Made by a program: the position numbers and the translations under genes. From the NCBI GenBank assembly GCA_020341815.1, contig CP070837.1:8034-72033 (forward strand): a DNA stretch of 64,000 nucleotides, read 5' to 3'. Numbering within the stretch: the stretch's first letter is position 1; each line of letters opens with the position of its first letter. Below the pieces are notes generated by a model. It worked only from the letters and a program-made list of their open reading frames with translations. It ran no database searches and had not been told where the DNA came from. The stretch comes from Candidatus Omnitrophota bacterium. Its GTDB lineage: Bacteria > Omnitrophota > Gorgyraeia > JAFGHF01. Of this stretch, positions 10,283 to 26,564 are shown piece by piece.

Positions 10283-10285
10283 ATT

Positions 10286-10861: not shown

Positions 10862-10893
10862 AGGTTATATTATTCTATTTTTCCAAAGTTTCG

Positions 10894-11292: not shown

Positions 11293-11318
11293 GCCTTAGG
11301 CCTCTGCTTTGAAAACTG

Positions 11319-11495: not shown

Positions 11496-11516
11496 TTTGC
11501 CCCCTTCTTTTTAATC

Positions 11517-11590: not shown

Positions 11591-11605
11591 CATATTTTTG
11601 ACTAT

Positions 11606-12310
11606 TTATTGTCCTATATTTGCTGCTTCCTCATATGTATCTACTTTTAATAAAGAATGTAAATTCAAAGCAGCCCAAACGGGGATATCCATCTTGATTT
11701 CTGATATCTCACCCTTTTCTCTTCTTCTGACCAGCTCTTCATAGTGTTTAATGCTTCTTCCAAAGAGCTTGTCTAAATATTTTATCAGGCTCCGGCGCTC
11801 TTGATCGGAAATAATAAACGGCAACTCTCCTTGAGGATTGTCCGACTCTGCCGGTTCAATAATCACCCAAACAGCCAGACTGCTGGTCTTTAGCGTATTA
11901 TTCCAGGCCTCACCCTGCTCCCGGGCATATTTGGAAAAAAGAGAAAGATACGCCTCTCTCGGCGGCCTATTTAAAGTCTTTATTAATTTTCCGGCAGCAG
12001 TTTCTATATTGGAAATATCCGCATATATCCCCCTTGCGGTTGCCCTGATTGCCTTATCTCTGCTCTCCAGCCAATCTTTCATAAACTCCTTCGCCTTTTG
12101 CAAACGGGGGACTTGATTGTTTAGATTGCCTAGAAGCTTTTCATATTCTACACCCTCAATACTGTAACGGGCAGCCAATTCCAGTCTATAGAGACAATTA
12201 ATCAAATCGTGCATAAACCGGTAATTCTCTGAATTTCTGGCTGCAAAGGCATTACTGGCAGACAATAAACTAAAAGCGAGGAATAATGAAATTAGCTTAT
12301 TTTTCATCAC
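11606..12310 (-). CDS. secreted hypothetical protein
   Basis: Signal peptide MMKNKLISLFLAFSLLSASNAFA; no recognisable domain. Confidence 0.45.
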   Translation of the reverse strand: MMKNKLISLFLAFSLLSASNAFAARNSENYRFMHDLINCLYRLELAARYSIEGVEYEKLLGNLNNQVPRLQKAKEFMKDWLESRDKAIRATARGIYADISNIETAAGKLIKTLNRPPREAYLSLFSKYAREQGEAWNNTLKTSSLAVWVIIEPAESDNPQGELPFIISDQERRSLIKYLDKLFGRSIKHYEELVRRREKGEISEIKMDIPVWAALNLHSLLKVDTYEEAANIGQ

Positions 12311-12334
12311 TTCACCCCCTTTTTTTCTTAAAAA

Positions 12335-12571
12335 GATGGCGTCCCCGGCACGATGCCTTCAATTCTGATAGATTATATCTTCCGTGGATACGCATTGTTT
12401 GCTCCCCGTTATTATACCAGAAAACGGCTGTCTGTAAAGGGCTATTTTGGCCTGCTTCTTTCCCGGATATACGACTATGCCCGCAACAAATGTCCTGATA
12501 AACTCCTTCTTTCTTTCCGGCTCTCCATAGCCTAATATACCCTTGAAATCATCTAAATAAGACAACATCTT
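12335..12571. repeat. 237-bp direct repeat copy 1 (att core gatggcgtccccgg plus recombinase 3' fragment)
   Basis: About 96% identical to 15744-15980. First 14 nt identical to the 3' end of tRNA-Arg at 26032-26045. Confidence 0.9.
12359..12568 (-). pseudogene. C-terminal 69-codon remnant of a large serine recombinase
   Basis: Translation MLSYLDDFKGILGYGEPERKKEFIRTFVAGIVVYPGKKQAKIALYRQPFSG... matches the last 69 aa of the recombinase at 15768-17405 with about 5 substitutions. Confidence 0.85.
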
Positions 12572-12598
12572 ATAAATAAAGAAGTTACAACGGAAAAC

Positions 12599-15433
12599 CT
12601 ATTCCTCGTAAAATATAACTTTTAATCGTATTCGATTTAAATCAATACCGCCAACATTTTCAGGCACCTGCCGGGTCATCGGACTACTGGTGTTAGCTTG
12701 CTGTGGGATTATAGGACTGCTGGGAGCTAACCCTTTTTCTTTGTCTCTTCCAGCCAATTCCATAAGCTTAGGTAATAGCTCTTTGGCTTTGAATCGGCCT
12801 AAACTTCCCTTTTTTGCTTCCTTTTCGGTAAAAATAGTGGTTATATCCGGCTCAATATCGTCAATGATTAATACTGGAACCGGATCACCGCTGTGGCTCA
12901 TTGTTGCAGTGGCGGTTGTATGATCAGCAGTAATCACAACTACTACATCATCTAATGCTTTGCTCTTTAACAAAGGACCAAAAAAGTGTTCATCAATAAG
13001 CTGAGTCACATTTACTTTTCCCTGAGCATCTCCTTTATGTCCAAATGGATCGGGACCTTTCAAATGAACGTAGAGACCGTCACTTTTTTTCAGTTGATCT
13101 TCCACTATTTGTGCAGTTTCTTTATATTCCCGAGGCAAGTCAGCTACATATCTAGGCATTTGAACTAAATTCATTCCGGCAAGTAAACCTATACCTCTTT
13201 CAACCGGCATTTGCTGTACCATTGTCCAGTTCATTCCTCCGGTTTTCTCAGAAAGCGATTTAAGAAACACATCTTTTACGCTGGGGCCGCGAAGAAGGAT
13301 TAAATTTACTGGTACACGGCCTGTTGCTCTGCGTTTTTTATTTATTTCAGAATTATCCATAATTGTGAAGATCTTTTCTACGGCCTCATTTACCAATTTA
13401 CTCAATAGCTGTGTCTTCTCTGTAGGATCTAATCTTGGTTTTACTTTTTGCACTTCATACTTGAAGCTTCCTTCAGGCAAAGATTCAGATGCGTTCTTGC
13501 TGATTTTTTTATACCGGGGGCTTGCATTGGTAACGTCAACGTCCTCAAGAGTATTAAATTTAACTGTAGGAATCCTTATGATTATTACTCCTCGATATTC
13601 TTTAGTAGCGTAAACATAAGCTTTTGCGTTGGAATAAGAAGTTAATTCAAGATTATTATTGATTTCAGCAGCGATTTCTTCAGCCTCTTCTTGAGTTAAA
13701 TCTTTTTGTGCCCGAGGATCTTCGATTTTCAGTAATTCACCTTCCTTATGTCCTGTTCCAAAGTTTAGGCGAAATACAGCATCACCCTCTTGAACATCAG
13801 CGTCAATACCTAAAGCTTCAATTATTCCTCTTCCTGGATAGTCTATATCAGGATCGTAATTCAACATAGCCATCACTGAAGGGTCTGATTCTGGAGCAAA
13901 TCCAGGTTTGATTGGGTCCATCTGCCCCATAGCTCCCTGTTGCACTAACCGAGTTAGATTAGGTAAATTTGCATATTCCAAAGGAGTTTTGCCTCCGAAT
14001 TCTTTAATTCCATATTCTCCGTCACTTACCCCGTCTAAAACAAAATAAACAATCTTTTTCTTTTGGACAAAGCTTTGGTCTTTCACGGGTGAACTCAAAT
14101 TTTCTAATTCTTCTACGCTGTCATAATTAAACCTCTCCGGATTCACGGCGAAACGACTATACGCAAGTGTAATTTCCTCATGTGAAGCCAGACTGGAAAC
14201 TGGGCTCAGTTGCATACCTTCTAGTCCAATGCCTGTTTCATCTGTGATTATCTTCGCATACCATTGTTTACCAAAGGGATCGGCTGCTGTATTAGCAGGG
14301 CTTGATATTGTCTCTACCTTTTTGAATTTAGTACCAGCGAGTATCCCCCCTGAAAAATAATGCTTCTTGGCCATATCAAATTGATAGGGGTCGTATTCCT
14401 GCTGGTAAAAGGAATATTCGCCTTCCTTGTAGGATTTGACATAGGAATCGAAGAAGTCTCTTTTGTTCCAGGGGGTTCTGGAATGAAGCCCGCTGAGGCG
14501 GCCTTGATTGATGTGGTAGTCATACATGGTGCCCTTGCCCCAGTATTTCTGCTTGAAATATTCGGCTAAGATAAGAGAGTAGTATACCTCTCTGATGGGG
14601 GCATAACGCTTTGAATAGTTGACATCGTGCTCTATGACAGGGACGATTACTTCCTTCATTGCAGAGATGGCACAATTTTGAAGGAGCTTCTCCTGTGGGC
14701 TTTGAGTTGAGGTAAGCAGAAGGCCTGCATTGTGTTGTTCTAGGTATTCTGCCTCCAGGCAGACCTTAAGGCTGGCGCTGATAATGTTGACTCTGTCGGT
14801 TCCTCTTTCCTGTAAGATGGCCTCATTAGGCACAATCCAGAGACGGGATAAAGGAAGCGTCTTGAGGTTACTTATGCCGTTTTCTGTAAGGTTTTGCCTT
14901 AATTTGGCCCAGTATCTCTGGCCTATGGGGGTACGGGGATCGGTAAAGCGGGCAGCGTCTTTTTTAAGTTTGAGGTCGGTCTCCAGAAGGACCTTCCCCA
15001 TATCGGTAGCGGTAAGCCGGGGGCTGGCAATCTTATCCGGCTGGACAGGGTTAAGGTTGACCCAGAAGTCTTCCGAAGGTAAGACAAGGCCTAAGAAGAA
15101 GTAGTTGATTAAATCTCTGGCCTTTTGTCGTAATTGTAGGGACAGGGCTGGGCCCTGTCCATTATTGCCCTCATCCAGAACAAAGTCAAAGTAGTTTGAC
15201 TTAGACTGAGGGTTGATGATAAGGCTCCTTAGGACAGGTGGATAGTATTTATCGGTTCTTGCTTCTGAATTGGCAAGAGAGACGGATTTATCCGCAGAAT
15301 AGCTTGATGAGTCCTTGTTCCTTAGGCTGGCACAGAGTAATAAGACGCTAAAGGCTATAAAGAGTACTCCGATTATGCTACAGAGCCATATCCAGAATCT
15401 GTTTTCTTTTACGTTATGTCTTTTCTTTTTCAT
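12599..15433 (-). CDS. membrane-anchored fusion protein: novel roughly 460-aa N-terminal extracytoplasmic domain plus C-terminal ApgM-like cofactor-independent phosphoglycerate mutase / metalloenzyme (alkaline phosphatase superfamily) domain
   Basis: One TM (FWIWLCSIIGVLFIAFSVLLL). C-terminal half has IVYFVLDGVSDG...GGKTPLEYANLPNLTRL...DPSVMAMLNYDP...RLNFGTGHKEG...ITADHTTATATMSHSGDPVP, the ApgM/PF01676 pattern. Start set at M24 (ATG 15433) behind an AGGAG RBS. Confidence 0.65.
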   Translation of the reverse strand: MKKKRHNVKENRFWIWLCSIIGVLFIAFSVLLLCASLRNKDSSSYSADKSVSLANSEARTDKYYPPVLRSLIINPQSKSNYFDFVLDEGNNGQGPALSLQLRQKARDLINYFFLGLVLPSEDFWVNLNPVQPDKIASPRLTATDMGKVLLETDLKLKKDAARFTDPRTPIGQRYWAKLRQNLTENGISNLKTLPLSRLWIVPNEAILQERGTDRVNIISASLKVCLEAEYLEQHNAGLLLTSTQSPQEKLLQNCAISAMKEVIVPVIEHDVNYSKRYAPIREVYYSLILAEYFKQKYWGKGTMYDYHINQGRLSGLHSRTPWNKRDFFDSYVKSYKEGEYSFYQQEYDPYQFDMAKKHYFSGGILAGTKFKKVETISSPANTAADPFGKQWYAKIITDETGIGLEGMQLSPVSSLASHEEITLAYSRFAVNPERFNYDSVEELENLSSPVKDQSFVQKKKIVYFVLDGVSDGEYGIKEFGGKTPLEYANLPNLTRLVQQGAMGQMDPIKPGFAPESDPSVMAMLNYDPDIDYPGRGIIEALGIDADVQEGDAVFRLNFGTGHKEGELLKIEDPRAQKDLTQEEAEEIAAEINNNLELTSYSNAKAYVYATKEYRGVIIIRIPTVKFNTLEDVDVTNASPRYKKISKNASESLPEGSFKYEVQKVKPRLDPTEKTQLLSKLVNEAVEKIFTIMDNSEINKKRRATGRVPVNLILLRGPSVKDVFLKSLSEKTGGMNWTMVQQMPVERGIGLLAGMNLVQMPRYVADLPREYKETAQIVEDQLKKSDGLYVHLKGPDPFGHKGDAQGKVNVTQLIDEHFFGPLLKSKALDDVVVVITADHTTATATMSHSGDPVPVLIIDDIEPDITTIFTEKEAKKGSLGRFKAKELLPKLMELAGRDKEKGLAPSSPIIPQQANTSSPMTRQVPENVGGIDLNRIRLKVIFYEE

Positions 15434-15661
15434 CAAGTCTTCTCCTTTTAAGAATTTTCCATACGCGCTTAAATAAAAAAGCCGGTAAAGTCTATAGTTC
15501 ATCTATAAACTTCGCCAGCCCCTCTCTTAAGTTGCAAAATAATTCGCATACTCCCTATTCCTATTGAGTAATTATAATAGCACAATAAGAGACAAAAATA
15601 AAGATTAATTATTATTTAGCTAATACTTTACTCCAATGATATATGATGGTGGGGCGTAAAA

Positions 15662-15695
15662 TAAAAAGGCGGGACATTTTTGTCCCGCCTTTTTA
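15662..15695. terminator. bidirectional rho-independent terminator
   Basis: AAAAAGGCGGGACATTTTTGTCCCGCCTTTTT: 8-bp GC stem flanked by A-run and T-run. Confidence 0.7.
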
Positions 15696-15743
15696 GAATC
15701 CGTAACCTCTTATAAATATTTATGTTACAAGAGTATGCGAATT

Positions 15744-15980
15744 GATGGCGTCCCCGGCACGATGCCTTCAATTCTGATAGATTATATCTTCCGTGGATAC
15801 GCATTGTTTACTCCCCGCTATTATACCAGAAAACGGCTGTCTGTAAAGGGCTATTTTGGCCTGCCTCTTCTCTGGATATACGACTATGCCCGCAACAAAT
15901 GTCCTGACAAACTCCTTCTTCCTCTCCGGCTCTCCATAGCCTAATATACCCTTGAAATCATCTAAATAAGACAACATCTT
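15744..15980. repeat. 237-bp direct repeat copy 2 (att core plus intact recombinase 3' end)
   Basis: See copy 1. Preceded by cgaatt, matching the cgaatc flank of the tRNA-Arg 3' end. Confidence 0.9.
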
Positions 15981-17405
15981 CCCTACCGCCTTATCTGCAT
16001 GGCCGTTATGGACCTTTGTTGTAAGACGGCCTTTCTCCTGATATAACTGCTGCCTTTGAAACACATATTTATTGATGATATTTACAGCGCTATCAAGCTC
16101 TATGCCCTTCTCAATGGCCTTTTTCCAGTTTTCTATCTTTAAGGATACCTCTTTTATCTCCTGATCTAACTCGCAGAGCCTCGTATCTGACCTATTTTCC
16201 GCAATTTTGACTATTTTAAGCAGTTCTTCTTTTAATTCCTTCCGCCAGGCAGAATTGTCTATCTTATTCTGTATGTAGCTTATAACAAACTCCTCAAGCT
16301 TATCTGCATCTATATCCCATCTAATACAGGCATTATTGCCATACATATTATAGCCGCCGCATCGATACCTTCTGGCTACTCTGTCTTTTCTTTTATAGCG
16401 GCTGCCCTGGAAATTAGAGCCGCACTTGCCGCATTTCATTATTCCGGTCAAAAGATAATTACTTCCCGGCCTTGTCCCGCAAGACAAGAACCTTCCGCCT
16501 ACAAAGGCCTGTCTTGTCCTGGCCTGAATCAATTCCCAAAGTTCCATGGAAATTATCGGCTGATGAGAGTTTTCTACGACAACCCACTTATCTTTAGGGT
16601 TATATTTGTGCTTGCCGTTTCGTTTATGTATATTTTCCCGGTTATACACTAAGGTTCCAATATAAACATCATTATGCAATATCCGCCAAAGGGATGATTT
16701 TGTCCACTTTTTGCCTCTTGGAGGCGCATAAGGACTTTGGTTAAGATATTCTACAATAGAGCGCACGGATAACCCCTGCTTGGCGAACATTACAAATATA
16801 GTCTTAATAACTTTAGCCTGCTGTTTATTTACGACAAGCTTTATTTTCTGGCCCTTTATGCCCTTTTCTTTGCCTTCCGGCAGAACCTCGCCTATTTTTC
16901 CGCCTTCAACAAGAGCTCTATTATAGCCGTAAGGGGGCCTCCCGCCCATCCAAAAGCCCTGTTTCGCATTATATATCTTACCTCTTAGCGTCTGCCGCCT
17001 GATATTCTTTAGATATTCTGAGGCCTCTGCGCTTTTCACAAAGTTGGTTATTGAAGTTCCTATACTGTCTTCTTTAAAACCTTCCGAGACAAAAACGACT
17101 TTCTTATCTGCTCTTTCAACTTCTACTTCCCAATAGACAGCTTCTTTGGGATTAGTGAACCTGCCCCATCTGGAGATATCATATACAAGTACATATTGAA
17201 AATCATCCTTTAATTTACAGCATTCTATCATTTTGCGAAACTGCGGGCGGCCTTCCACATTTTCGCCGCAGGCCTCTTCCGCAAAAAACTCTATCACTTT
17301 AATAGAATGCTGCTTTGCAAACAGCAATATCTTCTCTTTCTGCTGTTCTAAAGATGTCTCCTGTAAGTCAGTCGATTTTCTCAAGTAGGCAATGGCTTGC
17401 TTCAT
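15768..17405 (-). CDS. large serine recombinase (resolvase N-domain, recombinase domain, zinc ribbon, coiled coil)
   Basis: YLRKSTDLQ catalytic Ser motif, DISRWGR, GGRPPYGY, CGKCGSNF...RYRCGG zinc ribbon; 545 aa. Confidence 0.85.
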   Translation of the reverse strand: MKQAIAYLRKSTDLQETSLEQQKEKILLFAKQHSIKVIEFFAEEACGENVEGRPQFRKMIECCKLKDDFQYVLVYDISRWGRFTNPKEAVYWEVEVERADKKVVFVSEGFKEDSIGTSITNFVKSAEASEYLKNIRRQTLRGKIYNAKQGFWMGGRPPYGYNRALVEGGKIGEVLPEGKEKGIKGQKIKLVVNKQQAKVIKTIFVMFAKQGLSVRSIVEYLNQSPYAPPRGKKWTKSSLWRILHNDVYIGTLVYNRENIHKRNGKHKYNPKDKWVVVENSHQPIISMELWELIQARTRQAFVGGRFLSCGTRPGSNYLLTGIMKCGKCGSNFQGSRYKRKDRVARRYRCGGYNMYGNNACIRWDIDADKLEEFVISYIQNKIDNSAWRKELKEELLKIVKIAENRSDTRLCELDQEIKEVSLKIENWKKAIEKGIELDSAVNIINKYVFQRQQLYQEKGRLTTKVHNGHADKAVGKMLSYLDDFKGILGYGEPERKKEFVRTFVAGIVVYPEKRQAKIALYRQPFSGIIAGSKQCVSTEDIIYQN

Positions 17406-17545
17406 TAAGCTGTAACTTTCTCCCTTTCAATGACTACTCTTTTATCCTTCTGCTCTTCAAAATACTTGCTGAACATACACTCAATAATAAACTGGTTGAT
17501 TCTTTTTCCTGCTTCCGGCGGCTTCTTCTTTTCCTTGCTCTCCAT
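17405..17545 (-). CDS. 46-aa ORF overlapping the recombinase start (TAATG), possible recombination directionality / regulatory factor
   Basis: MESKEKKKPPEAGKRINQFIIECMFSKYFEEQKDKRVVIEREKVTA, AGGAG RBS upstream; below the ORF-track cutoff. Confidence 0.3.
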   Translation of the reverse strand: MESKEKKKPPEAGKRINQFIIECMFSKYFEEQKDKRVVIEREKVTA

Positions 17546-17562
17546 ACCAGGCTCTCCTTCCT

Positions 17563-17769
17563 TTACCTAACCAGATCCTTGCAACTAACGCCAAGGGCTT
17601 TGGCAAGCTCAAAAAGAGTTGTCAAATACATATTGACCCTGCCGTGTTCCACCCGGCTTATATATCCCCGGCTCAACTTGGCCTTTTTAGCCAGCTGCGC
17701 CTGTGTCAGCTTCTTCTCTGAGCGGTAATAGCGTATATTGTCCCCTATCTTCCTTCTCAGCTCTGACAT
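17563..17769 (-). CDS. XRE-family HTH transcriptional regulator
   Basis: LTQAQLAKKAKLSRGYISRVEHG HTH motif; start trimmed to M18. Confidence 0.75.
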   Translation of the reverse strand: MSELRRKIGDNIRYYRSEKKLTQAQLAKKAKLSRGYISRVEHGRVNMYLTTLFELAKALGVSCKDLVR

Positions 17770-17826
17770 AATACCTTTCCTCCTTTCATCAGTAATTACA
17801 TATGTAATGTTTGAGCACAAAAAAAT

Positions 17827-18021
17827 TTACCAGGTAATTCCCAGCGCCTTTATCTCCTTTATAGTCCTCTCCTGTTTTGGCACTGCCATCCCTAATTCCC
17901 ACCGCGCAATTGTAGTAACAGTTACAACTAATTTTCGCGCAAGTTCTTGTTGCGTCAAATCGCGTTCCTCTCTGTATCTTTTTATTGCCCGGCTAAATTT
18001 TTGCTTATCAATGGTCGTCAT
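17827..18021 (-). CDS. XRE-family HTH transcriptional regulator
   Basis: LTQQELARKLVVTVTTIARWELG HTH motif; 64 aa. Confidence 0.75.
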   Translation of the reverse strand: MTTIDKQKFSRAIKRYREERDLTQQELARKLVVTVTTIARWELGMAVPKQERTIKEIKALGITW

Positions 18022-18109
18022 CTTCTTCCTTTAATTCTTAAAGATAGCTTATCATATGTAATTACCCTTGTCAAGTGGTTTTTTTAAAGAATTTCTTTGG
18101 GAGAAAGCT

Positions 18110-18811
18110 TTATTTACGAGGACAAATAGAGCATGGAGATCTATTTGAAATACACGTATAAACGTTTATGCCATCAACTCTATGAAAATCTGCATCAATA
18201 ACAATAAAGTCATTTATGCCAGCTTCTTGCGCAATAGCAATATTAAGAGCATCTGCTGGTAAGATATTATACAGTTCTACAATATTGCACATCTTTTCGG
18301 TGACAGTCTCTGTTGTCTTCGTTTGCAGATGATCTGCTTCTAAAACGGCAATTGGAATAGCCATAATCCTCTCATAATAATATTTTAGTAAATGGTAATA
18401 CTTAGCAATTAATTCGTGATGATCTTTTAATAATTCGGATAATGGATTTTTTCTTCCTTTATCTTTATATTCTTGAATATGCCTATCATAAGGGGTAGTA
18501 AAGAAATCTACAGATTCTACTTTATTTTTCAAAATATAAAAAAAGAACTCATTCAAAACATAATTATCTGTAAATAAACAAATTTCTTCAGATTTCGCTT
18601 TTGTTTCTAAAAGAGTCAAAAAATCACTGCAAATAATATTTATTCTGGAAAAAATTTTCTCTGGAACAGGAAAAAAAGAATTGATGAGAAAAGAAGTATC
18701 TATAAAAAAGAAATCTGGAAAATTAAATCCAGATTTTTTAGTATTATTAAATTTATATATCGTCGCTGGCATAGAAGTTTTTTTTGTTATCTTTTTCAAA
18801 ATATTTCTCAT
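18110..18811 (-). CDS. long PIN-like nuclease domain protein (about 220 aa), third gene of a coupled operon
   Basis: FFFIDTSFLIN (first Asp) ... TDNYVLNEF ... DALNIAIAQEAGINDFIVIDADF (distal Asp pair), with a roughly 90-aa insertion between. Alternative start M14 at 18772. Confidence 0.5.
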   Translation of the reverse strand: MRNILKKITKKTSMPATIYKFNNTKKSGFNFPDFFFIDTSFLINSFFPVPEKIFSRINIICSDFLTLLETKAKSEEICLFTDNYVLNEFFFYILKNKVESVDFFTTPYDRHIQEYKDKGRKNPLSELLKDHHELIAKYYHLLKYYYERIMAIPIAVLEADHLQTKTTETVTEKMCNIVELYNILPADALNIAIAQEAGINDFIVIDADFHRVDGINVYTCISNRSPCSICPRK

Positions 18812-19100
18812 TATCTAAGGTAACTTGATCGGGGAAGGTAATATTCGAAATCTCACCTTTCTTTGAAGCCAATATTTTAGCTTTTGCCAAAGCTAATTTA
18901 TAGAATGATTTTAATTTATTCTTTTTTTCTTCTTTTAATTCGCTAAAAATTAAATTATCTGTTACTTTCTTTAAATAGTGCTCCAGGATTCTTTTCTTAT
19001 TAGTAAACCGCATTTCCTCTTGGCTAATCAAGACAACATCTTTATCATCCTCGATATGCCAAATTTCTAGGCCGATATCTTTCTTGAGTATTTTATGCAT
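18753..19100 (-). CDS. 115-aa hypothetical protein, middle gene of the operon
   Basis: Start at the ATG embedded in AATGCATAA (overlaps the stop of the upstream gene); the track's longer N-terminus would overlap the upstream ORF by 178 nt and is rejected. Confidence 0.45.
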   Translation of the reverse strand: MHKILKKDIGLEIWHIEDDKDVVLISQEEMRFTNKKRILEHYLKKVTDNLIFSELKEEKKNKLKSFYKLALAKAKILASKKGEISNITFPDQVTLDNEKYFEKDNKKNFYASDDI

Positions 19101-19701
19101 TTTTATTTTCTTTTTGTTTGATAAAAGCTGCCGAAAAATTCTTTGATTTTTTAATGGTATCCTTAAGATATCCAAAGCTATAACTATTAATGTGCTCCGA
19201 AAGAACTTGAAGAAAGATATCATCTGCCTTACAACGATGACATTTCTGAATATCCAAAATAATAGAATCAACTTCTCTATGCTCTGGAAAAGAAATTCTC
19301 ATACCATTCAAAATTACTTTTCCAAAGCCACTTCTTTTTTCTTCAAAAACCACTGGCAGAGCAGGATCAGTTTCAAAATCTTTCCTTGAATAATGAAATG
19401 TCATTCTTGAAAAAATAGTTATTTTTTCTGTAAAGTTTTTCTCGAAAAAGTCTGAAGTTTTTTTGAAATTCTCTATATCTTTTTTTTCGAAGCTAGGATA
19501 ATCAGGAATAGTAACGGTAAGTTGATAAGCAGTAGTAGAATTTGGTTTTTGTTCAGGCAATTCAATCAGACTAAAAAGTTCTTTCTGTACATGGATAAAG
19601 TTAGAGTATTCTTTATAAAGTCTTTTTTCTATAGCCAATTCAGTAACTAACTTGGCATAATAGAAATGCCTATTTTTTATTAAATTTATAAACTCTTGCA
19701 T
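19093..19701 (-). CDS. 202-aa hypothetical protein, first gene of the operon
   Basis: No recognisable motif; 146-bp AT-rich promoter region upstream. Confidence 0.45.
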   Translation of the reverse strand: MQEFINLIKNRHFYYAKLVTELAIEKRLYKEYSNFIHVQKELFSLIELPEQKPNSTTAYQLTVTIPDYPSFEKKDIENFKKTSDFFEKNFTEKITIFSRMTFHYSRKDFETDPALPVVFEEKRSGFGKVILNGMRISFPEHREVDSIILDIQKCHRCKADDIFLQVLSEHINSYSFGYLKDTIKKSKNFSAAFIKQKENKNA

Positions 19702-19846
19702 AGTTTGTGATATCTAATTGTAATATTTATTAACAAAAGTTATTTTAGCACAAATTTCGATAAAAGTCAATTATATTTATAATTGCCCAAATTGTCCAGA
19801 AACATAACTTATTTCCTCTTAAGCAGTTGCAACAATTCACCAATTC

Positions 19847-20638
19847 TCAAAAACCAACTTTGTATTTTTTCAGAAATAAATCTAATTCTTGTTTCTTTCC
19901 TAGTTCAAATAAATCATTATATACAGATAGGAATGTATGCATGTATTCAATTGTTAAAATCATATTTGTTATTATATTGCAATATGATGGGTCAGAAGAA
20001 AAATATGTATATTCTTCAGTACGCTTCACTTCTTGGATGATTCCAAGCATTGAGGGGTGTGAAATTAAGCAGCACATACGATATACAAGATTATATTCAT
20101 TTGACATACCAACTACTTCGGCCATTCTTTCAACGGATTTCCCCGACCAAGTAGAAAGACCATTTTTAACTTTAAAATTTACTTTATATTCTTTAACTTT
20201 AGCCAAAATTTCGGGTTCTTTTGATAGAATTGATTTCTGTAACTTTTTGCTCTCAACTTGTTTATTTGTTTTCCAATATTTCAATTGCTTTCTCATCAGT
20301 AGCCATTTGTATTCTTCAAATCTTTGAGCAAGCTCATTAGGATTTTTATTCAAAATTATATATTTTGTAGTAATCAAATTTTCTAATAGTGATCTCATAA
20401 GTATTAGGGCGCTCATACCATGACCTTCTTGGCAGAGCAAATCAATAGATTTATAATGTCTAATTGATGTATTAAATAGATATAGAAAGGTGTTCTTATA
20501 TTTTGGTATTCTGCTTGGTCGAAAGTTATTTGATGATTGATTAAAGACGATAAGTAATGTGTCTATTAAATGATATAAATTATCGGCGCATTCAAATAGT
20601 TCTTTATTTTTTTTAAGATTTTCATGTTTAAAAGCCAT
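19847..20638 (-). CDS. hypothetical protein with HEPN-like Rx6H motif (RMCCLISHPS), candidate abortive-infection-type RNase
   Basis: 263 aa; the R-x6-H-x-S motif lies in a predicted helical C-terminal region. Confidence 0.35.
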   Translation of the reverse strand: MAFKHENLKKNKELFECADNLYHLIDTLLIVFNQSSNNFRPSRIPKYKNTFLYLFNTSIRHYKSIDLLCQEGHGMSALILMRSLLENLITTKYIILNKNPNELAQRFEEYKWLLMRKQLKYWKTNKQVESKKLQKSILSKEPEILAKVKEYKVNFKVKNGLSTWSGKSVERMAEVVGMSNEYNLVYRMCCLISHPSMLGIIQEVKRTEEYTYFSSDPSYCNIITNMILTIEYMHTFLSVYNDLFELGKKQELDLFLKKYKVGF

Positions 20639-20818
20639 ATTTTTATATTCACTTCATATAATGCTTGAGATAATCTGTCTTTTTCGCATAGCTAAAAAAG
20701 TTAGATTGAGCGATTTGATAAAGGTTTAATTTATAAATATTTCACATAAAATCAGGTGACAATACCTATTTAGTAATTAAGTATTGTCCCTCGATTTGTG
20801 TCATTTTCGCTCTCTTGT

Positions 20819-21157
20819 TTAAGGTAAAGCTACTGGTACGCTAAACTTAATTCGGCTTACTGAGGAATTCTCTTTGCGGGATTCACCTTGACTGCCAAGT
20901 CCGACTGATCCAACAAAAACACCAATGCCACCTTTTGTGCCCTGTCGTTCCACTGCAGTTATTGCTACATCAAATTCAACTATAGTTACAGTTTTATGGC
21001 CGCTCATTTTCATCAGGCCTTGTTTCACAATATCTTTTGTATCCCCCCAAACACCTGGATTAATGTCGGCACCGGATGTGGATTCAGATTCCTTAGCATT
21101 TTTAATGCCTGTAATTAACTCTTCTAAGGTTTTTGACACAAAGTCACTTAAATTCAT
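20819..21157 (-). CDS. small protein resembling the Trypco2 (trypsin-co-occurring domain 2) fold
   Basis: N-terminal amphipathic helix (LEELITGIKNA) followed by Gly-rich beta hairpins VEFDVAITAVERQGTKGGIGVFVGSVGLGSQGES...IKFSVPV. Only gene in the window with a perfect AGGAGG SD at -7. Confidence 0.35.
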   Translation of the reverse strand: MNLSDFVSKTLEELITGIKNAKESESTSGADINPGVWGDTKDIVKQGLMKMSGHKTVTIVEFDVAITAVERQGTKGGIGVFVGSVGLGSQGESRKENSSVSRIKFSVPVALP

Positions 21158-21289
21158 ATGGATCCTCCTATTGAAATCTGGAAATCTGAAATCTAAAAAT
21201 CCGTATGCTTTAGATTACGGGAACATAATATTTATTTATTAGATTTTAAAGCTAATTAAGTGTTGATCCCTAGAATTTTCCGATTGGTT

Positions 21290-22381
21290 TTATTTTCCAG
21301 ATTTTGTTCGGTTATCTTGTTTGCACAACATTTGACAATTTTCTGCAACAGTCTTTCCACCTTCATGCCATGGCTTTATATGATCAGCTTCCATTCCTTC
21401 TATCTCAAAGCGTTTCTTGCATTTTACGCATTTACCTTTTTGCCTTTCATATGCTTCTCTCTTTTGTTTATCTGTGAATGCTCTAATATTCAAAAATTTC
21501 TCATTTCGGGTTAAAATATATGGATAAATTCCGGATTTCTTCGTTACTTCGTCATCTAGCATTAATTCTTTGATTTCAGTTTCCAATTTATTAGAGTTCA
21601 GTCTCTTCTTTTTGAACTCGTTATGCAGCCCGCCCCATTGCACACCACTCATTTCTCGGCGATAATTTATAAAAGTCTTTCGCACCCACTCAATCACATC
21701 TTGAAAGTATTGCCATAATTCTTCAGCATTCTGACTATGCTGATGTTTGGCCATATAATCTTCTATCTTGCCATTGTTAATCCACGAAAGTGCAGTTTCT
21801 AAATACTCTTGTCGTATTGGCGATCCACTTACTAATTGTCCCCCATCATTTGCTAGAAGGTATGCTGCACAATTTGATTTGCTAAATTTCAATTTAGCGT
21901 CGCTCAACCATGGCCCAGTATAAACTGCATTGCGTATTTCTTGATCAGTCAATTTTACACCGGCAATGTTGATAATCCTAAACCAGTCTAACCGCTCTTT
22001 GTCTGTGCCTTCGCAGAAGTAAATCATTAGTTCATAATCCAAAATTTTATCCTGCTCCTCTTTGGTTAGATTATGAAAAAAGCAGTTATTCAGTGAAAAA
22101 TCGTTATAAACATATTGTCCTATACTAATAGTGCGCTGTTGGCCGTCCAGCATTTCGTAGCCGCCATCTTCTCTGATCATCCAATACATCACATTCAGCG
22201 GAAAGCTGTTTTTGATAGTTTCTATCACGGCATTACGTTGCTTTTCCTTGTATACAAACTCACGCTGATATTTTGGACGAATATTCAATTTGCCGTCATA
22301 AGCCGTCACGCCTTCTTCAGCACTATCTTTATAATCGGCTATTACCTTACGAATTGGAATTTTATGTAGATCGATTTTCAT
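21290..22381 (-). CDS. DUF262 (ParB/Srx-like, DGQQR) domain protein with C-terminal HNH endonuclease, GmrSD/SspE-like
   Basis: MLDGQQRTISI motif; C-terminal CVKCKK...EADHIKPWHEGGKTVAENCQMLCKQDN HNH motif. Confidence 0.75.
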   Translation of the reverse strand: MKIDLHKIPIRKVIADYKDSAEEGVTAYDGKLNIRPKYQREFVYKEKQRNAVIETIKNSFPLNVMYWMIREDGGYEMLDGQQRTISIGQYVYNDFSLNNCFFHNLTKEEQDKILDYELMIYFCEGTDKERLDWFRIINIAGVKLTDQEIRNAVYTGPWLSDAKLKFSKSNCAAYLLANDGGQLVSGSPIRQEYLETALSWINNGKIEDYMAKHQHSQNAEELWQYFQDVIEWVRKTFINYRREMSGVQWGGLHNEFKKKRLNSNKLETEIKELMLDDEVTKKSGIYPYILTRNEKFLNIRAFTDKQKREAYERQKGKCVKCKKRFEIEGMEADHIKPWHEGGKTVAENCQMLCKQDNRTKSGK

Positions 22382-22382
22382 A

Positions 22383-23435
22383 TTATTTTTTCACTTTCTT
22401 GTTTTTAATTAAAATACGAGCATATATTTCTTGACCATTTATCGTAAATCTCTTTCCATAATTCGGATTATCTTTGACATACCTATCAATACCAATAATT
22501 TCAAACTGCTCGGGGTTATATTTATCAACAAATGTAATTGGAACACCCATTACACCTTTATAATCCATTGGGATATCAATGTATCTATTTATATTAATAG
22601 CATTGTAGCTATCATATTTAGGATAATCCTCTGGGCTATATTTTTTATATAAAGTTAATTCTTCATGACGTTTTGCAGTATCCAAATTTGTAAACCACAG
22701 AATACGACCCATACTTAAATATTTCACACCGTTTTCAATCTTCTTCCTTGATTCTGTTGGTATGTCATAATCCATGGGTACCTGGAACCACTTCGTGCCA
22801 CCGTTATCATAACCAAGCCACAATTTATTTTCTTTGATATAGCCGAAAATTTCTTTATAAGAAATAGCGTTCTGATCACCAAGAATCAAAAACTTCTTGT
22901 TATATTCCATTAGCTGTGCAACATATTCCCGAAACAGAGAAAAAGGCGGATTGGTTACAACTATGTCGGCTTGCTTGAGTAATTCTATACACTCATCGCT
23001 GCGGAAATCGCCATCACCTTCAAGGGGAGATGAAGTATTAACATCATGTCTTAGCAACCACTCTACATCTGTAATATCAACAGCGCCGTCGGCATTAACA
23101 TCTGAAATCTCCCTTATTTCAATTTTAAATGGCTCTTTGCCTTTCGGCTTTAACCCTTCCATTTCAAACAACAACAGCTGACCGCCCACAATTGGCGACT
23201 TAATATAGCTTGTGGTAATAAGCTTCTTTAGTTTTAGTGGTTTAAAATTAGCAGCGAAATATTTAAAAAAATTACTCTCAAAGGGATCATCGCAATTACA
23301 GTAAACAACCTTGCCACGAAATTGTTCTTTGTAGTGTCTTAGCTCTTTTTCAATATCAACGAGCTGGGTATAAAACTCATCTTTTTTTGCTTTGCTTGCC
23401 TTATGTAAGTTTTTATTTAAAGATTTAGTTCCCAT
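22383..23435 (-). CDS. N6-adenine DNA methyltransferase (FYT motif X-like ... NPPF motif IV) with embedded EF-hand/dockerin-like Ca-binding loop
   Basis: DEFYTQLV near the N-terminus, IVVTNPPFSLF catalytic motif, DVNADGAVDITD 12-residue DxNxDGxxDxxD loop; stop overlaps the start of the DUF262-HNH gene. Confidence 0.6.
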   Translation of the reverse strand: MGTKSLNKNLHKASKAKKDEFYTQLVDIEKELRHYKEQFRGKVVYCNCDDPFESNFFKYFAANFKPLKLKKLITTSYIKSPIVGGQLLLFEMEGLKPKGKEPFKIEIREISDVNADGAVDITDVEWLLRHDVNTSSPLEGDGDFRSDECIELLKQADIVVTNPPFSLFREYVAQLMEYNKKFLILGDQNAISYKEIFGYIKENKLWLGYDNGGTKWFQVPMDYDIPTESRKKIENGVKYLSMGRILWFTNLDTAKRHEELTLYKKYSPEDYPKYDSYNAININRYIDIPMDYKGVMGVPITFVDKYNPEQFEIIGIDRYVKDNPNYGKRFTINGQEIYARILIKNKKVKK

Positions 23436-23659
23436 ATTTTTATTAGGATTTGGTCCTAATTACCTAATGTTACTTTCTTCCTACTAATTCATCCAAGCTA
23501 ACCCCAAAAGCATCGGCAATCTTAACCATGGTTTGAATTGTGGGTTGCTTTGCGATACTTTGTTCGATTATGTATTTTACTTGCCTTTGTCAAGAAATTA
23601 GTATTGCGTCCCCTGATCTGCATGATTCTGCGATTCTGTAGAGGAATATCCCGTTTATC

Positions 23660-24973
23660 TTATTGCTCAATCTTACAACCCTCCTTTGACACTCTTAACC
23701 ATCCATATTTCTTTGTAAAGATATCGAGTACATCATTATTTGTAATTTCTCCCTGTTCTTTCAGATAGAGCAGATTTAATAGATCAATTGTCCTCATAAT
23801 TAACACCTTCTTTTCAACTGCTAACTTTACTTGCTCTGAATTTACTTCGCGCAATTTGTCTGCAATACTATTTGCTGATTTTATAAATGAATTCACAATT
23901 AATATAGTTGGAAATTTAGACGATTTCCCTCTGCGACCTCTATGTGAGTCTGCTTGATAAACATTAGGACTTTTAATATTTTCGTTTACTCCCTTTATTT
24001 CCAAAAGAGCTATCTCTTTATTATCTTTGTCAAGTATTGCTCTGTCTTCTATGTATTCGTCTTTTTTAGTATCTATGTTAAAGCTAAACCCTTCTTTCAA
24101 TACATCTACCACACTATCAACTAATGGATTATCACTATAACAAAGGCATCTTTTATATTTTTTATACACCTCTTTTCCTGCAAGTAGTGCCTCTATCTTA
24201 TTCTGTAATGCTACTTCTTTTTTCAAGATAGCTTCTTCTTCTTGAAACTTATAGTCGTCTACCCAAGATGGTATTTCTTGAACTAATTTCTTTGAAGTAG
24301 CCACTAAAGATGAAACGAGTTCCTTAAAAAAATGATCTATTTCGTCTATTGATGGTATCCGACACGGGATAATATAATGGCTGTCAAACAAAATGAAGCC
24401 CGCTAGAGTACGATAGCCTGCATCACAAATCTTTTTTACATACGGTTCAAAGAATGAATTATAGGAAAATTTTACCTTTGCTATGCCATAGTCTTTCAAG
24501 AATTGCAGAAATTCCCCTTTATAAGTCTTTGTAATTCCACAATCCCCACCTAAAGGATACCTATAGAAACCATCATAATTTAGAAGCAGTTTGCATAAGC
24601 CAGTCTGTTTCAGATTTAAGTCATCCTGACCTCTTATATAATCAACAAATTCTGAATGGATGAGGAAGCAAATAAATCCTCCTCTCTCGCGTAATTGTAA
24701 AGTTTGATTTCTTCTTTTTACTAATTCATCTCTCCGATATCGCAAATATTTTTGTGCATAGAGGCCATCTGTTGATTCAACACTTTCAAATGTAGACTGG
24801 AATAAAACTACGCCATTATAATCTTGAAACCTTTTAGCTGTTTCGAAAGGTTCAAAATCTATTTCAAAGTTTTTGGTTTTGATGGTTGACTGCGGAATAC
24901 TTAAGTCGAAACGCTCAATACCATATACAAGAATACGTGGTAAGGTAGAACCTTGAATTTGTTTAGCATCCAT
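23660..24973 (-). CDS. hypothetical protein with C-terminal PD-(D/E)xK nuclease-like core, candidate restriction endonuclease
   Basis: ...EDRAILDKDNKEIALLEIKG (D ... ExK spacing typical of the restriction-endonuclease fold); N-terminal 300 aa unassigned. Confidence 0.4.
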   Translation of the reverse strand: MDAKQIQGSTLPRILVYGIERFDLSIPQSTIKTKNFEIDFEPFETAKRFQDYNGVVLFQSTFESVESTDGLYAQKYLRYRRDELVKRRNQTLQLRERGGFICFLIHSEFVDYIRGQDDLNLKQTGLCKLLLNYDGFYRYPLGGDCGITKTYKGEFLQFLKDYGIAKVKFSYNSFFEPYVKKICDAGYRTLAGFILFDSHYIIPCRIPSIDEIDHFFKELVSSLVATSKKLVQEIPSWVDDYKFQEEEAILKKEVALQNKIEALLAGKEVYKKYKRCLCYSDNPLVDSVVDVLKEGFSFNIDTKKDEYIEDRAILDKDNKEIALLEIKGVNENIKSPNVYQADSHRGRRGKSSKFPTILIVNSFIKSANSIADKLREVNSEQVKLAVEKKVLIMRTIDLLNLLYLKEQGEITNNDVLDIFTKKYGWLRVSKEGCKIEQ

Positions 24974-25094
24974 TTATTTCACCTCATCTCTATGAAAACT
25001 ACAGGAAATTCTTTGGCCAGCAAAATCACATTGACTTTTATTTTACCCCTTTTTGTTGACTATAGCAAGGTAAAAGTACTTGGACAATGGAGAG

Positions 25095-25334
25095 TCATTT
25101 GGCCTTTTTAGACCAATGAAATAGGGCTATTTTGATGGAAATTGGGATTGGTTTGCCCTTTCGGGGCCTGCAATGACGTCTGAGGCGTAAAATCCAGCCC
25201 TTTGGAAACCAGATTTCCCTGCCATCAAACTCGATTAGGATGGCTTTGGGGGTTTCTTTGATGAGAAGGGCGTTTATCCAGACATATTCCGGGGGATTTA
25301 AGGCATATTTGAGCCAAAATTTGAGGCTAAACAT
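25095..25334 (-). CDS. small hypothetical protein
   Basis: 79 aa, overlaps the upstream wHTH gene by 8 nt. Confidence 0.35.
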   Translation of the reverse strand: MFSLKFWLKYALNPPEYVWINALLIKETPKAILIEFDGREIWFPKGWILRLRRHCRPRKGKPIPISIKIALFHWSKKAK

Positions 25335-25815
25335 AGGTTTTTCTTGCTTTTCTCAGGTTTCTAAGGCCTTCTTTTAGCCAATCTGGGGCAATATAAGGCT
25401 TTTCGCAAAGGGGTTTTGGCTGTTCAGTAAATTCGGATCTCCTTTTTCTGATCTTCTTAGTGGTAATTTCTTTATGGGCAGTGGCGCGGCGCTGCTTGAG
25501 CTCTATTCTGTCAACCGGAAGATCCTGGAGCTCTACCCATATCTTTGGCTTTTTGTTCTTGTGGCCGGAAACCATCCCCTTTTCAGTAGCAATCAGGCCC
25601 ATATCTTTGAGCTCTTGGCGTGCTTTGTATATTGTCGCATTGGCCAGGCCGGTGGCTTCTTTTAATGCTTTTGCTCCATAGCAGCTTCTGCCCTCTGCCC
25701 CACCTGCTAAGACATAAAGAATGTAGAGCTTGGCGGCTGAGGCGGACATTTCCTTTAAGAATCCTAATTCTTTAAGGTCCCTGTCTATCCAGCCAAATGG
25801 GTAAAGTGTTCTCAT
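25327..25815 (-). CDS. winged-helix DNA-binding protein (phage/plasmid replication-organiser or regulator type)
   Basis: LYILYVLAGGAEG...ATIYKARQELKDMGLI wHTH followed by a basic tail. Confidence 0.45.
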   Translation of the reverse strand: MRTLYPFGWIDRDLKELGFLKEMSASAAKLYILYVLAGGAEGRSCYGAKALKEATGLANATIYKARQELKDMGLIATEKGMVSGHKNKKPKIWVELQDLPVDRIELKQRRATAHKEITTKKIRKRRSEFTEQPKPLCEKPYIAPDWLKEGLRNLRKARKTYV

Positions 25816-25865
25816 AGTTTAAATATTCTATTTCAATATCTATTTAATACTTATATAGAGAGTTC

Positions 25866-25915
25866 AAATTTTGAACTATGCCCTGCTTAAAGCTGAGTTC
25901 AAAAATTGAACTATG
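25866..25915. promoter_or_regulatory. two copies of the palindromic operator GTTCAAAnnTTTGAAC-TATGC
   Basis: agttcaaattttgaactatgc and agttcaaaaattgaactatgc 24 bp apart, upstream of the wHTH gene and next to the attL side. Confidence 0.4.
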
Positions 25916-26033
25916 CTTTAAAATAAAAAAAGGGAAGCTACCCTGCACCGTATGGTACAGAACAACTTCCCTTAATTTTGGTAACCTTTTATAACTGTTT
26001 AAGTTATAAAAGTGTCCGAATCGATGGCGTCCC

Positions 26034-26304
26034 CGGTGTGATTCGAACACACGACCCTCTGCTTAGCATCCAGCATCAAGTTTCCCTGACCACTCCGAAT
26101 ACTCGGAGCTTGCTGGCCGGACTTTCTCTTGGGCGTCTCAGCCCCACCGCGTAAAGTCTCTACACTTCCCCAAAACTTTTAGGGTAGCTCGGTATTACCC
26201 AACTTGGGCGTCTACCGAATTAGCGGTGTCCACTTCATAAGTTTATTTCCCTATGAAGGCTCCTTATTGAAGGCAGATGCTCTATCCAGCTGAGCTACGG
26301 GGAC
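26034..26304 (-). tRNA. tRNA-Arg(UCU) interrupted by a 194-nt intron in the anticodon loop (exons 26270-26304 and 26034-26075)
   Basis: 5' half GTCCCCGTAGCTCAGCTGGATAGAGCATCTGCCTT and 3' half CTAAGCAGAGGGTCGTGTGTTCGAATCACACCGGGGACGCCA. They pair perfectly in acceptor (GTCCCCG/CGGGGAC) and anticodon (TCTGC/GCAGA) stems. The D-arm is that of E. coli tRNA-Arg. Confidence 0.75.
26076..26269 (-). ncRNA. group I (IC3-like) self-splicing intron candidate inside tRNA-Arg
   Basis: Contains GAAGUGUAGAGACUUUACGCGGUGGGG, closely resembling the P7/J6-7 core GAAGGUGUAGAGACUAGACGGCACCC of the Azoarcus tRNA-Ile intron as I remember it. 5' exon ends in U, intron ends in G. Possible P1 CUU/GAG. Confidence 0.55.
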
Positions 26305-26308: not shown

Positions 26309-26383
26309 TCGGGACGGGCAGATTCGAACTGCCGACCTTCTGCTCCCAAAGCAGACGCGCTAGCCAAACTGCGCTACGTCCCG
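26309..26383 (-). tRNA. tRNA-Pro(UGG), CCA not encoded
   Basis: Acceptor CGGGACG/CGTCCCG, anticodon loop TTTGGGA, T-loop TTCGAAT; 4 nt upstream of tRNA-Arg. Confidence 0.8.
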
Positions 26384-26480
26384 TTCCAAAATACTGCCAA
26401 GCTTTGTGCTTTGGCAAGACTAATGCCATATAGCACTAGTCTACTTTTAAAAATCAACCATTGAAGTATTTTGGAACGGG
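26380..26480. mobile_element. MITE-like TIR repeat, family 1, copy A
   Basis: TIRs CCCGTTCCAAAATAC / GTATTTTGGAACGGG around a central palindrome ctaatgccatatagcactag; abuts the tRNA-Pro 5' end. Confidence 0.7.
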
Positions 26481-26564
26481 ATACGTCCCCATTCTGCAGA
26501 CATACCCTCTTCCAAAATACCACCACAGTTCTCTGATTATAGCTTAAAAACGGGCCTCTGTCCA

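Follow-up and report, generated by a model that had tools for sequence, protein, structure and literature searches.

The window analysed here is a 64,000-nt stretch of contig CP070837.1 of a Candidatus Omnitrophota bacterium (GenBank assembly GCA_020341815.1, positions 8,034 to 72,033). Window positions 12335-26036 probably comprise two related integrative islands, arranged in series at the 3′ end of an intron-containing tRNA-Arg(UCU) gene and inserted by a large serine recombinase (LSR) of a clade specialised for tRNA 3′ ends. An earlier interpretation based on the letters of the DNA (the sequence-only reading) had proposed serial integration by an LSR at one tRNA end. That proposal is supported by the anatomy of the junctions, by the presence of a single recombinase, and by a link between recombinase and tRNA end that extends across a family of related loci.

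The anatomy of the junctions is directly visible in the window. The 14-mer GATGGCGTCCCCGG occurs in exactly three copies, all on the + strand, where 0 are expected (100 shuffles). It corresponds to the last 12 nt of tRNA-Arg(UCU) including CCA, plus 2 nt of flank, as had been proposed and as is borne out by the call of the spliced gene as tRNA-Arg(tct). The tRNA gene lies on the minus strand (26304-26025), with its 3′ end at 26025 when the sequence is read directly. Starting there and descending through the coordinates, core copy A (26023-26036) joins the tRNA to the P′1 arm, forming the left junction of element 1. The P′1 arm (25981-26022, minus strand) comprises TCGATTCGGACAC and a conserved hairpin at 25986-26012. 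Element 1 continues to the P1 arm (15758-15790, minus strand), which is the recombinase-side half-site of the phage-type attachment site (attP) and overlaps the stop codon of the recombinase gene (CAGAATTGA-N10); it is conserved in homologues and forms a dyad with the P′ arm. Core copy B (15744-15757) connects P1 with P′2, and is both the right end of element 1 and the left end of element 2. The P′2 arm (15660-15743, minus strand) consists of TCAATTCGCATAC and a hairpin, followed by a terminator-like hairpin with a T-run (GGCGGGAC...GTCCCGCC). At the distal junction core copy C (12335-12348) joins the P2 arm to the chromosomal flank B′ (11606-12334, minus strand). Beyond this core the sequence is unique and chromosomal; it contains the gene of a 233-aa secreted-type protein, whose ribosome-binding site and ATG begin 27 nt from the core. 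The putative crossover dinucleotide CC is located at 26035-26036, 15756-15757 and 12347-12348 in copies A, B and C respectively.

The common orientation of the three copies and the positions of B and C are as previously given, while the copy placed at 26032-26045 is in fact 9 nt away, so that element 1 ends at 26022 and not at 26031. Copies B and C lie within a 237-nt repeat with 228/237 positions identical (96.2%, close to the 96% claimed), the first 66 nt being identical throughout; the repeat is the 3′ end of the recombinase gene. Copies A and B are related over 56 nt at 84% (15702-15757 versus 25981-26036 in a repeat search), and the P′1 and P′2 arms are ~79% identical. The flank cgaatY had been ascribed to B and C; it is instead common to A and B, and C passes directly into unique chromosome. 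A and B therefore share a P′ arm, B and C share a P arm, and only C has a chromosomal flank, which is the pattern predicted by a tandem array.

The distal end is covered a second time by Logan contig L045 (SRR14739666), which is 100% identical to window 12571-11546 and includes copy C with its flank. Since this independent contig reproduces copy C and its private differences, these are real. It is scarcely credible that the array is an artefact of assembly that linked alternative alleles of one tRNA locus from two strains. The genome was assembled from a metagenome, the assemblies of many relatives break right after the LSR gene, and Logan contigs break at the edges of the repeats, as such an artefact might lead one to expect. 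Yet junctions A and B share just the 14-nt core, and because this is shorter than any assembler k-mer, reads must span P1-core-P′2. In addition, the nine differences private to copy C are reproduced in the independent assembly, and the same type of internal junction is found in several unrelated samples.

The LSR gene (15768-17405, minus strand) encodes 545 aa, and its stop codon is 10 nt from copy B. The last 69 codons of the same gene are repeated as a remnant (12359-12568, minus strand) that forms the P2 arm (12359-12571) and adjoins copy C, with 94% amino acid and 96% nucleotide identity to the 3′ end of the intact gene; both observations agree with the sequence-only reading. The protein contains Resolvase (PF00239, 1.4e-18), Recombinase (PF07508, 5.1e-28) and Zn_ribbon_recom (PF13408, 2.8e-14) domains. 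R9, S11, D76, R79 and R82 are invariant in 21 homologues, the four cysteines of the zinc ribbon are conserved, and a helical insert at residues 380-470 corresponds to the embedded coiled coil. The protein matches the PHROG 95 integrase (5e-95), and its best solved relative in a PDB search is SPbeta SprA (1e-15). The best NCBIfam match is CcrB with 121.6 bits (cutoff 900), followed by CcrA with 70.7 (cutoff 700) and CcrC with 69.3 (cutoff 900). Judged by these matches the protein is a large serine recombinase, distantly Ccr-like. A paralogue on the same 1.55-Mb contig (P0003) is 78% identical.

The comparison draws on about 50 related Omnitrophota loci (designated by L numbers), obtained by exact look-up and from the contigs of genomes and metagenomes; they comprise homologues of the LSR with 70-86% identity and a further clade at ~52%. 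A tRNA-type 3′ end of the form GGGG(ACG/TCA/TCG/CTA)CCA follows the LSR stop codon in 14 of the 18 loci from two scans that have readable downstream sequence, appearing as GGGGACGCCA, GGGGTCACCA, GGGGTCGCCA or GGGGCTACCA; one of the 14 lacks the final CCA. The distance from the stop codon is at most ~20 nt in 12 of the 14, and ~120 nt in L009/L010 owing to a ~97-nt insertion. L047 and L048 provide two further cases beyond the 18 loci. Elsewhere in ~278 kb of these loci the same motif occurs just twice. The recombinase and the tRNA end are linked across the family, in the clade at 70-86% identity and in that at ~52%.

The other end of the elements is also placed at tRNA genes. Upstream of the LSR gene L004, L026, L043 and L049 carry tRNA-Glu(UUC), and immediately after it comes a family-type P′ arm in the first three and a similar arm (CCTATTCTGACA) in L049. 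The arms of L004 and L026 are of the same type as P′1, and that of L043 is without the conserved hairpin. L015 starts within a tRNA and has its right junction 11.6 kb further on. Homology between relatives stops exactly at the CCA in the comparisons L012/L011 and L022/L024. The closest homologue, L047 (86%), aligns with the window at 83.4% over 1811 nt as far as window position 15745, and has the same Arg-type core (cgtgCCGGGGACGCCA) beside different chromosomal genes. Internal P-core-P′ junctions like that at copy B are present in L002, L009/L010, L014, L025, L042 and L048. Behind the intact element of L048 lies a 1.3-kb unit that comprises a single gene, a P arm of only 44 nt and a second core. 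L014 and L015 have a common chromosomal flank (97% identity) and are set apart by a distal remnant of 2.1 kb, present in L014, which adds two cores. A decayed unit distal to the tRNA is thus seen in L014 and L048 as well as in the window. The cargo of the relatives is variable and mostly concerned with defence, including AbiEi/AbiEii, a DEAD/MZB helicase, a PLD nuclease, an AAA_15 ATPase, a C5 methylase, an AlwI restriction-modification (R-M) system and a LexA-like repressor; L047 carries histidine kinases instead of defence genes.

Some of these loci have features of their own. The ~97-nt insertion of L009 (10725-10822, and the same in L010) lies in the last LSR codons just before the P arm, is accompanied by duplication of ATGTG, and resembles a miniature transposable element. 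In L049 the gyrB and gyrA genes (522-8424 and 10001-11843), located directly upstream of the target tRNA-Glu, each contain a LAGLIDADG intein; in the same locus the LSR gene is followed directly by a homologue of the gene for a 79-aa protein of element 1, with no tRNA core between them. Many metagenome contigs (L002, L009, L012, L015, L022 and others) end 100-300 nt past the LSR stop codon, which would fit assembly graphs that branch at the attachment repeat or at strain-variable junctions.

The attP site was rebuilt as P arm + core + P′ arm, and all possible dyad centres were scanned in eight such sites. The rebuilt site is an imperfect palindrome, GARTTGA-N10-NN-N10-TCRATTC. In seven of the eight sites the best centre is the dinucleotide immediately 5′ of GGGG, with a summed score of 108 compared with 74 for the runner-up. 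This dinucleotide corresponds to tRNA positions 65/66, that is the last base of the T-stem and the first base of the 3′ strand of the acceptor. The window has CC at this point, and the other sites have GT, CT or TT; none of these is palindromic, and the cognate tRNA has the same two bases in every case. The identity between tRNA and fragment also has its left edge at this dinucleotide, both in L015 and in the window. We infer that the crossover occurs here, which would suit the chemistry of serine recombinases, whose cut is staggered by 2 nt in the middle of a dyad. The core that contains it, lying in a tRNA gene, is 14 bp here and 12-18 bp across the family. Between attP and the bacterial site (attB) a T-loop-like motif is shifted by ~9-10 bp, and not by the 5 bp envisaged for the zinc-ribbon motif. 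The possibility that B′ flanks share the outer TCRATTC with P′ was considered and set aside, as the match of ~51% of positions (a hand count, in an AT-rich background) is not convincing.

There is very little likelihood that a different enzyme inserted the islands, such as a cryptic tyrosine integrase, the host Xer or an integrase acting in trans, with the LSR a passenger resolvase or invertase. The tRNA 3′ ends with direct repeats of at least 14 nt are the classic signature of a tyrosine integrase (PMC4383910), and an open reading frame (ORF) of 437 aa without family assignment is located near the tRNA-side junction. That ORF gives no Phage_integrase signal at E<=1, however, and is absent from every related element; as a hidden integrase it was rejected, having neither a family nor a PDB match and no conservation in relatives. 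The LSR gene is the sole gene with a Resolvase domain in the island, and family-wide it is the only gene at a fixed distance from the tRNA fragment, and, as in the attP sites of LSRs, the site over its stop codon has dyad symmetry about a non-palindromic dinucleotide. A search for Phage_integrase found no tyrosine integrase in any ORF of this island or of the elements in L015, L026 and L043, and there is none among the Pfam matches of the called genes in L047, L048 and L049. The sampled elements have no other recombinase. There are no conjugation or capsid genes for transfer in the array, and no relatives of the LSR among the viral contigs of IMG/VR, so that a prophage reading is without support.

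Insertion by the LSR could proceed as follows. The circular element would carry an attP of the form YCAGARTTGA-N10-[NN]-GGGGACGCCA-TCRATTC that overlaps the LSR stop codon. The corresponding attB would comprise the T-arm of the tRNA, the dinucleotide at positions 65/66 where T-stem and acceptor 3′ strand meet, and the remainder of that strand with the CCA and flank. One LSR dimer would bind each site, and both sites would be cut with a 2-nt stagger at the central dinucleotide (CC), followed by subunit rotation and religation. After integration the resident tRNA 3′ of position 66 would be element DNA, and for this reason the element would have to carry a faithful acceptor 3′ strand, discriminator and CCA, giving the long core. 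It would resupply 10-12 nt at the end of the tRNA and add a hairpin and terminator of its own, and the displaced original tRNA end would be left at the far junction beside the LSR gene. The predicted empty attB is ...GTTCGAATCACACCGGGGACGCCATCTTTTTAAGAAAAAAAGG, and the predicted junction of the element 1 circle is ...AATTGAAGGCATCGTGCCGGGGACGCCATCGATTCGGACACTTTTATAAC.

On this scheme the tRNA-side junction should still resemble attB and be usable as a target, because all of the B half-site is retained there, together with the central dinucleotide and, from the opposite half-site, the innermost 10 bp. Arrays could then arise by entry of a second element either at this junction or at the distal one. 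Entry on the tRNA side would put the newest element beside the tRNA, and the order of intact proximal and decayed distal units in L014, L048 and the window fits this; the same arrangement would result from entry at the distal junction. The sequence of integration events, like present activity, is a matter of interpretation. The full proposal is that this is an LSR clade whose natural attB is the 3′ end of a tRNA gene (tRNA-Glu or tRNA-Arg), with crossover at 65/66 and replacement of the acceptor 3′ strand. As one attB half-site would largely consist of sequence also present in attP, the products would resemble substrates, could be targeted again to build arrays, and would possibly be reversible without a directionality factor. 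This would be the first such clade documented by comparison, and its LSR would have converged on the lifestyle of the tyrosine integrases while keeping its own chemistry, with a conserved tRNA arm that many bacteria already possess as its landing pad. We regard this joint claim as tentative, a possible rather than a probable account.

Several points weigh against the insertion of two islands by such an LSR. The adjacent tRNA fragment is missing in the intact copy of L014, in L019, in L020/L021 and in L049. The dyad of the window attP taken alone is only modestly significant (63 of 2000 shuffles are as good), and the dyads of the eight sites are not independent evidence because the family members are related. 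Canonical serine integrases disfavour recombination of attP with attL or attR, and formation of an array therefore needs a relaxed choice of sites, as with Ccr and DsiB. Exact-protein look-ups of the flank and island genes found no empty attB or circular junction for this species; they yielded three short Logan contigs from SRR14739666 (L001, L045 and L046) that match at 100% and stop at repeat edges or inside the island. Lastly, the cargo of element 2 is from a gene family of the host lineage, and its GC content (0.40-0.45) matches that of the genome.

This last point would also suit a single integration, in which segment 2 was never independent; the right end of element 1 would have been duplicated locally, and a chromosomal gene captured or flanked in the process. 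Segment 2 is without backbone genes, and the repeat at B and C is 96% identical compared with just ~79% for the P′ arms. Against this, the P′ arm at junction B is complete and of the family type, and has a terminator and a hairpin variant of its own; P′2 differs from P′1, and is therefore not a copy of any sequence of element 1. Moreover the combination of an intact element with a one-gene mini-element ending in a short remnant and a core recurs independently in L048 and L014. The single integration is consequently improbable, and a second, tandem element is preferred.

A greater, though still minor, chance attaches to the array being a fixed fossil, the product of past integrations whose recombinase or sites are now inactive. 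This would be in keeping with the failure of the look-ups to find an excised or empty form, with the plain decay of element 2, and with the lack of conjugation or capsid genes and of relatives on viral contigs. It is unlikely nonetheless, given that the LSR ORF is intact with all of its invariant residues and that the P arms at B and C are identical over 66 nt. Close relatives have different cargo at different loci, from which recent mobility of the family follows. Since the sites of element 2 look intact, and its P2 arm is the same as P1 for 66 nt, it may be mobilisable in cis by the recombinase of element 1; at best it could be moved in this way either alone or together with element 1. We liken it to the cis-mobilisable elements (CIMEs) at ICESt1/ICESt3-type sites, where we take a recombinase-less unit with functional-looking attachment sites beside an intact element to suggest mobilisation in cis. 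The ICESt1/ICESt3-type systems are conjugative elements and use tyrosine integrases.

The description of the tRNA target as unusual for a serine recombinase agrees with the literature. In Islander (2014) tRNA genes were not among the known targets of serine integrases (PMC4383910). TIGER (Mageeney et al. 2020) predicted use of t(m)RNA genes for 14 of 297 serine-integrase islands, which was previously unreported and required experimental proof (PMC7192596). The serine integrases of M. abscessus use 5-8-bp cores inside ORFs (PMC8092301), and the largest survey of LSRs analysed protein-coding targets alone and never mentions tRNA (preprint 10.1101/2021.11.05.467528). The 14 TIGER cases resemble the present one in being computational evidence for the use of t(m)RNA genes by LSRs; they were reported as a count only, whereas here the clade, the anatomy of the attachment sites and the probable crossover are described. 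Canonical LSR elements have the same set of domains and catalytic residues, and an attP that is an imperfect inverted repeat with a non-palindromic dinucleotide common to attB. Their core is typically 2-12 bp in a protein-coding gene, in contrast to 14 bp in a tRNA gene.

The closest published precedent is provided by the ssrA islands of Dehalococcoides (DsiB/DsiA), in which a 540-aa CcrB-like recombinase is associated with a 20-bp repeat of the 3′ end of the transfer-messenger RNA (tmRNA) and with tandem islands, some of them recombinase-less (McMurdie et al. 2011, PMC3146451). Both systems have a ~540-aa CcrB-like recombinase at one end, a restored gene 3′ end as target, short direct repeats, and tandem islands with variable cargo downstream of the target. 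In Dehalococcoides the target is the tmRNA (ssrA), whereas here it is tRNA-Arg or tRNA-Glu, with no tmRNA found, in another phylum. The six-gene module of those islands includes, besides DsiB, the small serine recombinase DsiA and RecF-, ParB- and Mom-like genes, and neither DsiA nor these genes have a counterpart seen here; the backbone consists of the LSR, small HTH_3 genes, a 79-aa β-barrel protein and a 162-aa winged-helix-like protein.

A resemblance to the staphylococcal cassette chromosome (SCC) had also been noted, and holds in part. As in SCC/SCCmec there is a serine recombinase for which the Ccr type is the nearest curated family, a gene 3′ end that is left functional as target, direct repeats, and serial accretion into composite arrays that include recombinase-less units. 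The protein is not a Ccr orthologue, however, scoring 121.6 against the CcrB cutoff of 900, and it is a single recombinase with no CcrA-like partner in contrast to the CcrA/CcrB pair; a tRNA takes the place of rlmH (orfX) as target, the cargo is for defence rather than resistance, and the host belongs to Omnitrophota. With the tRNA islands of tyrosine integrases (the Islander/TIGER type) the array shares an intact tRNA and a cognate 3′ fragment in the same orientation as its boundaries, restoration of the gene, an integrase gene at one end, and tandem arrays (PMC4383910). It would differ from them in using a serine nucleophile and a double-strand cut staggered by 2 nt, and in having a dyad attP that lacks arm-type sites, and its identity block is only as long as rebuilding of the tRNA end needs. 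Overall the array appears to work like SCC and the Dehalococcoides ssrA islands, while belonging to neither.

Insertion into tRNA genes is regarded as characteristic of tyrosine integrases. If the present interpretation is true, preference for a tRNA target is not tied to the mechanics of tyrosine recombinases, which bears on the question raised in PMC7192596. Island finders such as Islander require a tyrosine integrase (PMC4383910). Current pipelines would miss islands of this kind, and doubly so here because the target tRNA is split by an intron and uncalled. Recurrent arrays would constitute a natural system for the rules of relaxed LSR directionality, as in SCC, and a family of small defence islands is documented in Omnitrophota, a little-studied phylum. 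Serine integrases are favoured tools of genome engineering. An LSR with a conserved tRNA T-arm and acceptor end as attB would offer a ready, neutral landing site in diverse bacteria.

Element 1 (15758-26022, 10.3 kb) is intact, with backbone, R-M cargo and recombinase. Its GC content is 0.27-0.36 over 18-24.5 kb, compared with 0.42-0.46 in the flanks, and with the R-M pair this conforms to its earlier description as an AT-rich, defence-type segment. Proceeding from the tRNA side, an intrinsic-terminator-like hairpin of 20 pairs followed by a T-run (TTTTTATTTT) is located at 25930-25973 on the minus strand, ~50 nt past the restored tRNA end. Between this and the gene for the 162-aa protein, and upstream of the latter, a repeat search revealed two 22-nt direct repeats (25860-25916) with the palindrome GTTCAAA(T/A)TTTGAAC, which look like operators for a repressor encoded by the element. 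The 162-aa backbone protein (25327-25815, minus strand) has a weak winged-helix signal, with only weak matches to helix-turn-helix (HTH) and replication-initiator N-terminal families; homologues of its gene adjoin the P′ arm in L004 and L026 (60-64% identity). The 79-aa backbone protein (25095-25334, minus strand) is modelled as a small β-barrel (AlphaFold2, AF2, predicted local distance difference test pLDDT 83.7), and fold searches with the model gave no informative structural neighbour. It has 37 relatives, and homologues of the gene lie beside the P′ arm in L004, L014, L015, L025, L026, L042, L043 and L049. In the circular form this gene would be near the recombinase gene across attP, with the 162-aa gene and ~200 nt of non-coding sequence between them.

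The cargo block of element 1 (18110-24973, minus strand, low GC) was annotated using Pfam, PADLOC, NCBIfam and PHROGs, and all of its genes are on the minus strand. The 437-aa ORF without family (23660-24973) is followed by an EcoRI-like N6A methylase (22383-23435; PADLOC MTase_II, 1.2e-126) and a type II nuclease with GmrSD_N and HNH domains (21290-22381; PADLOC REase_II, 8.5e-130). Beyond these are a 112-aa ORF after the nuclease, a DUF5677 gene (19847-20638) with a 202-aa ORF after it, and a PIN-like ORF (18110-18811). PADLOC scored the R-M pair alone in this cargo. Two genes for Cro/CI-type HTH_3 proteins of 64 and 85 aa (17563-18021, minus strand; Pfam HTH_3, 1.7e-12 and 7.7e-13) are placed directly upstream of the recombinase, and an HTH_3 gene occupies the same position in L047 and L048.

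Element 2 (12349-15743, 3.4 kb) has both ends, one cargo gene and the recombinase remnant, in accord with the single cargo gene noted before. This sole large gene (12599-15502, minus strand) encodes a 967-aa fusion protein with a full ApgM-type phosphoglycerate mutase at residues 483-913 (TIGR00306, 325 bits). The N-terminal module of ~450 aa is without a Pfam family. It is found in more than 100 large proteins of Candidatus Omnitrophota, with several paralogues per genome, and its partners differ, including methyltransferases, CheB, kinases, PGK, phosphoesterases and glycosyltransferases; it looks like a lineage-specific targeting or scaffold domain. At the exact truncation point of the recombinase remnant the sequence 12564-12590 matches the hairpin of P′2 (15704-15730) at 81% identity, which could be either chance in AT-rich DNA or a trace of how the deletion came about.

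The target gene was called by neither ARAGORN nor Rfam, which together report tRNA-His, tRNA-Pro, tRNA-Met and tRNA-Val in the window and no tRNA-Arg, because a 203-nt insert splits the gene. When the insert is deleted in silico, ARAGORN reports a tRNA-Arg(tct) that is 77 nt long and has a perfect acceptor stem. The 5′ exon (26270-26304, minus strand, read directly) has U34 as its last base, and the insert (26067-26269, minus strand) lies in the anticodon loop between U34 and C35. It is followed by the 3′ exon (26025-26066, minus strand), the T-arm of which is the B arm of the attachment site. The insert is preceded by U (-1) and its terminal nucleotide is G. By hand it folds into P2-P9 including the P3/P7 pseudoknot, with every helix perfectly paired and in canonical order, and J8/7 is AAGAGAA. 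With these hand-drawn helices, and with GUGUAGAGACU, which we take to be the IC3 motif, it can be drawn as a group I-like intron. The Rfam Intron_gpI model gives no match to the insert even at E<=10 (261-nt search), the matches being just chance ones to YrlA and PyrR208. The classical bacterial tRNA-Arg intron is located after position 36 (preprint 10.1101/2020.01.27.920355). The site of the present insert, after U34, is the position of the classical tRNA-Leu(UAA) intron and not that of the classical tRNA-Arg(CCU) intron.

Directly upstream of the target is tRNA-Pro(UGG) (26309-26383, minus strand; ARAGORN, and 67.6 bits with the Rfam tRNA model), and the two tRNAs probably share one transcription unit. 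The 5′ end and leader of tRNA-Pro form an inverted repeat with a site ~80 nt upstream (26379-26404 and 26456-26481, 26 nt, 85%), and another copy resembling GTATTTTGGAACGGGA is present at 26466-26487. These repeats may be a leader structure or a relic tRNA fragment.

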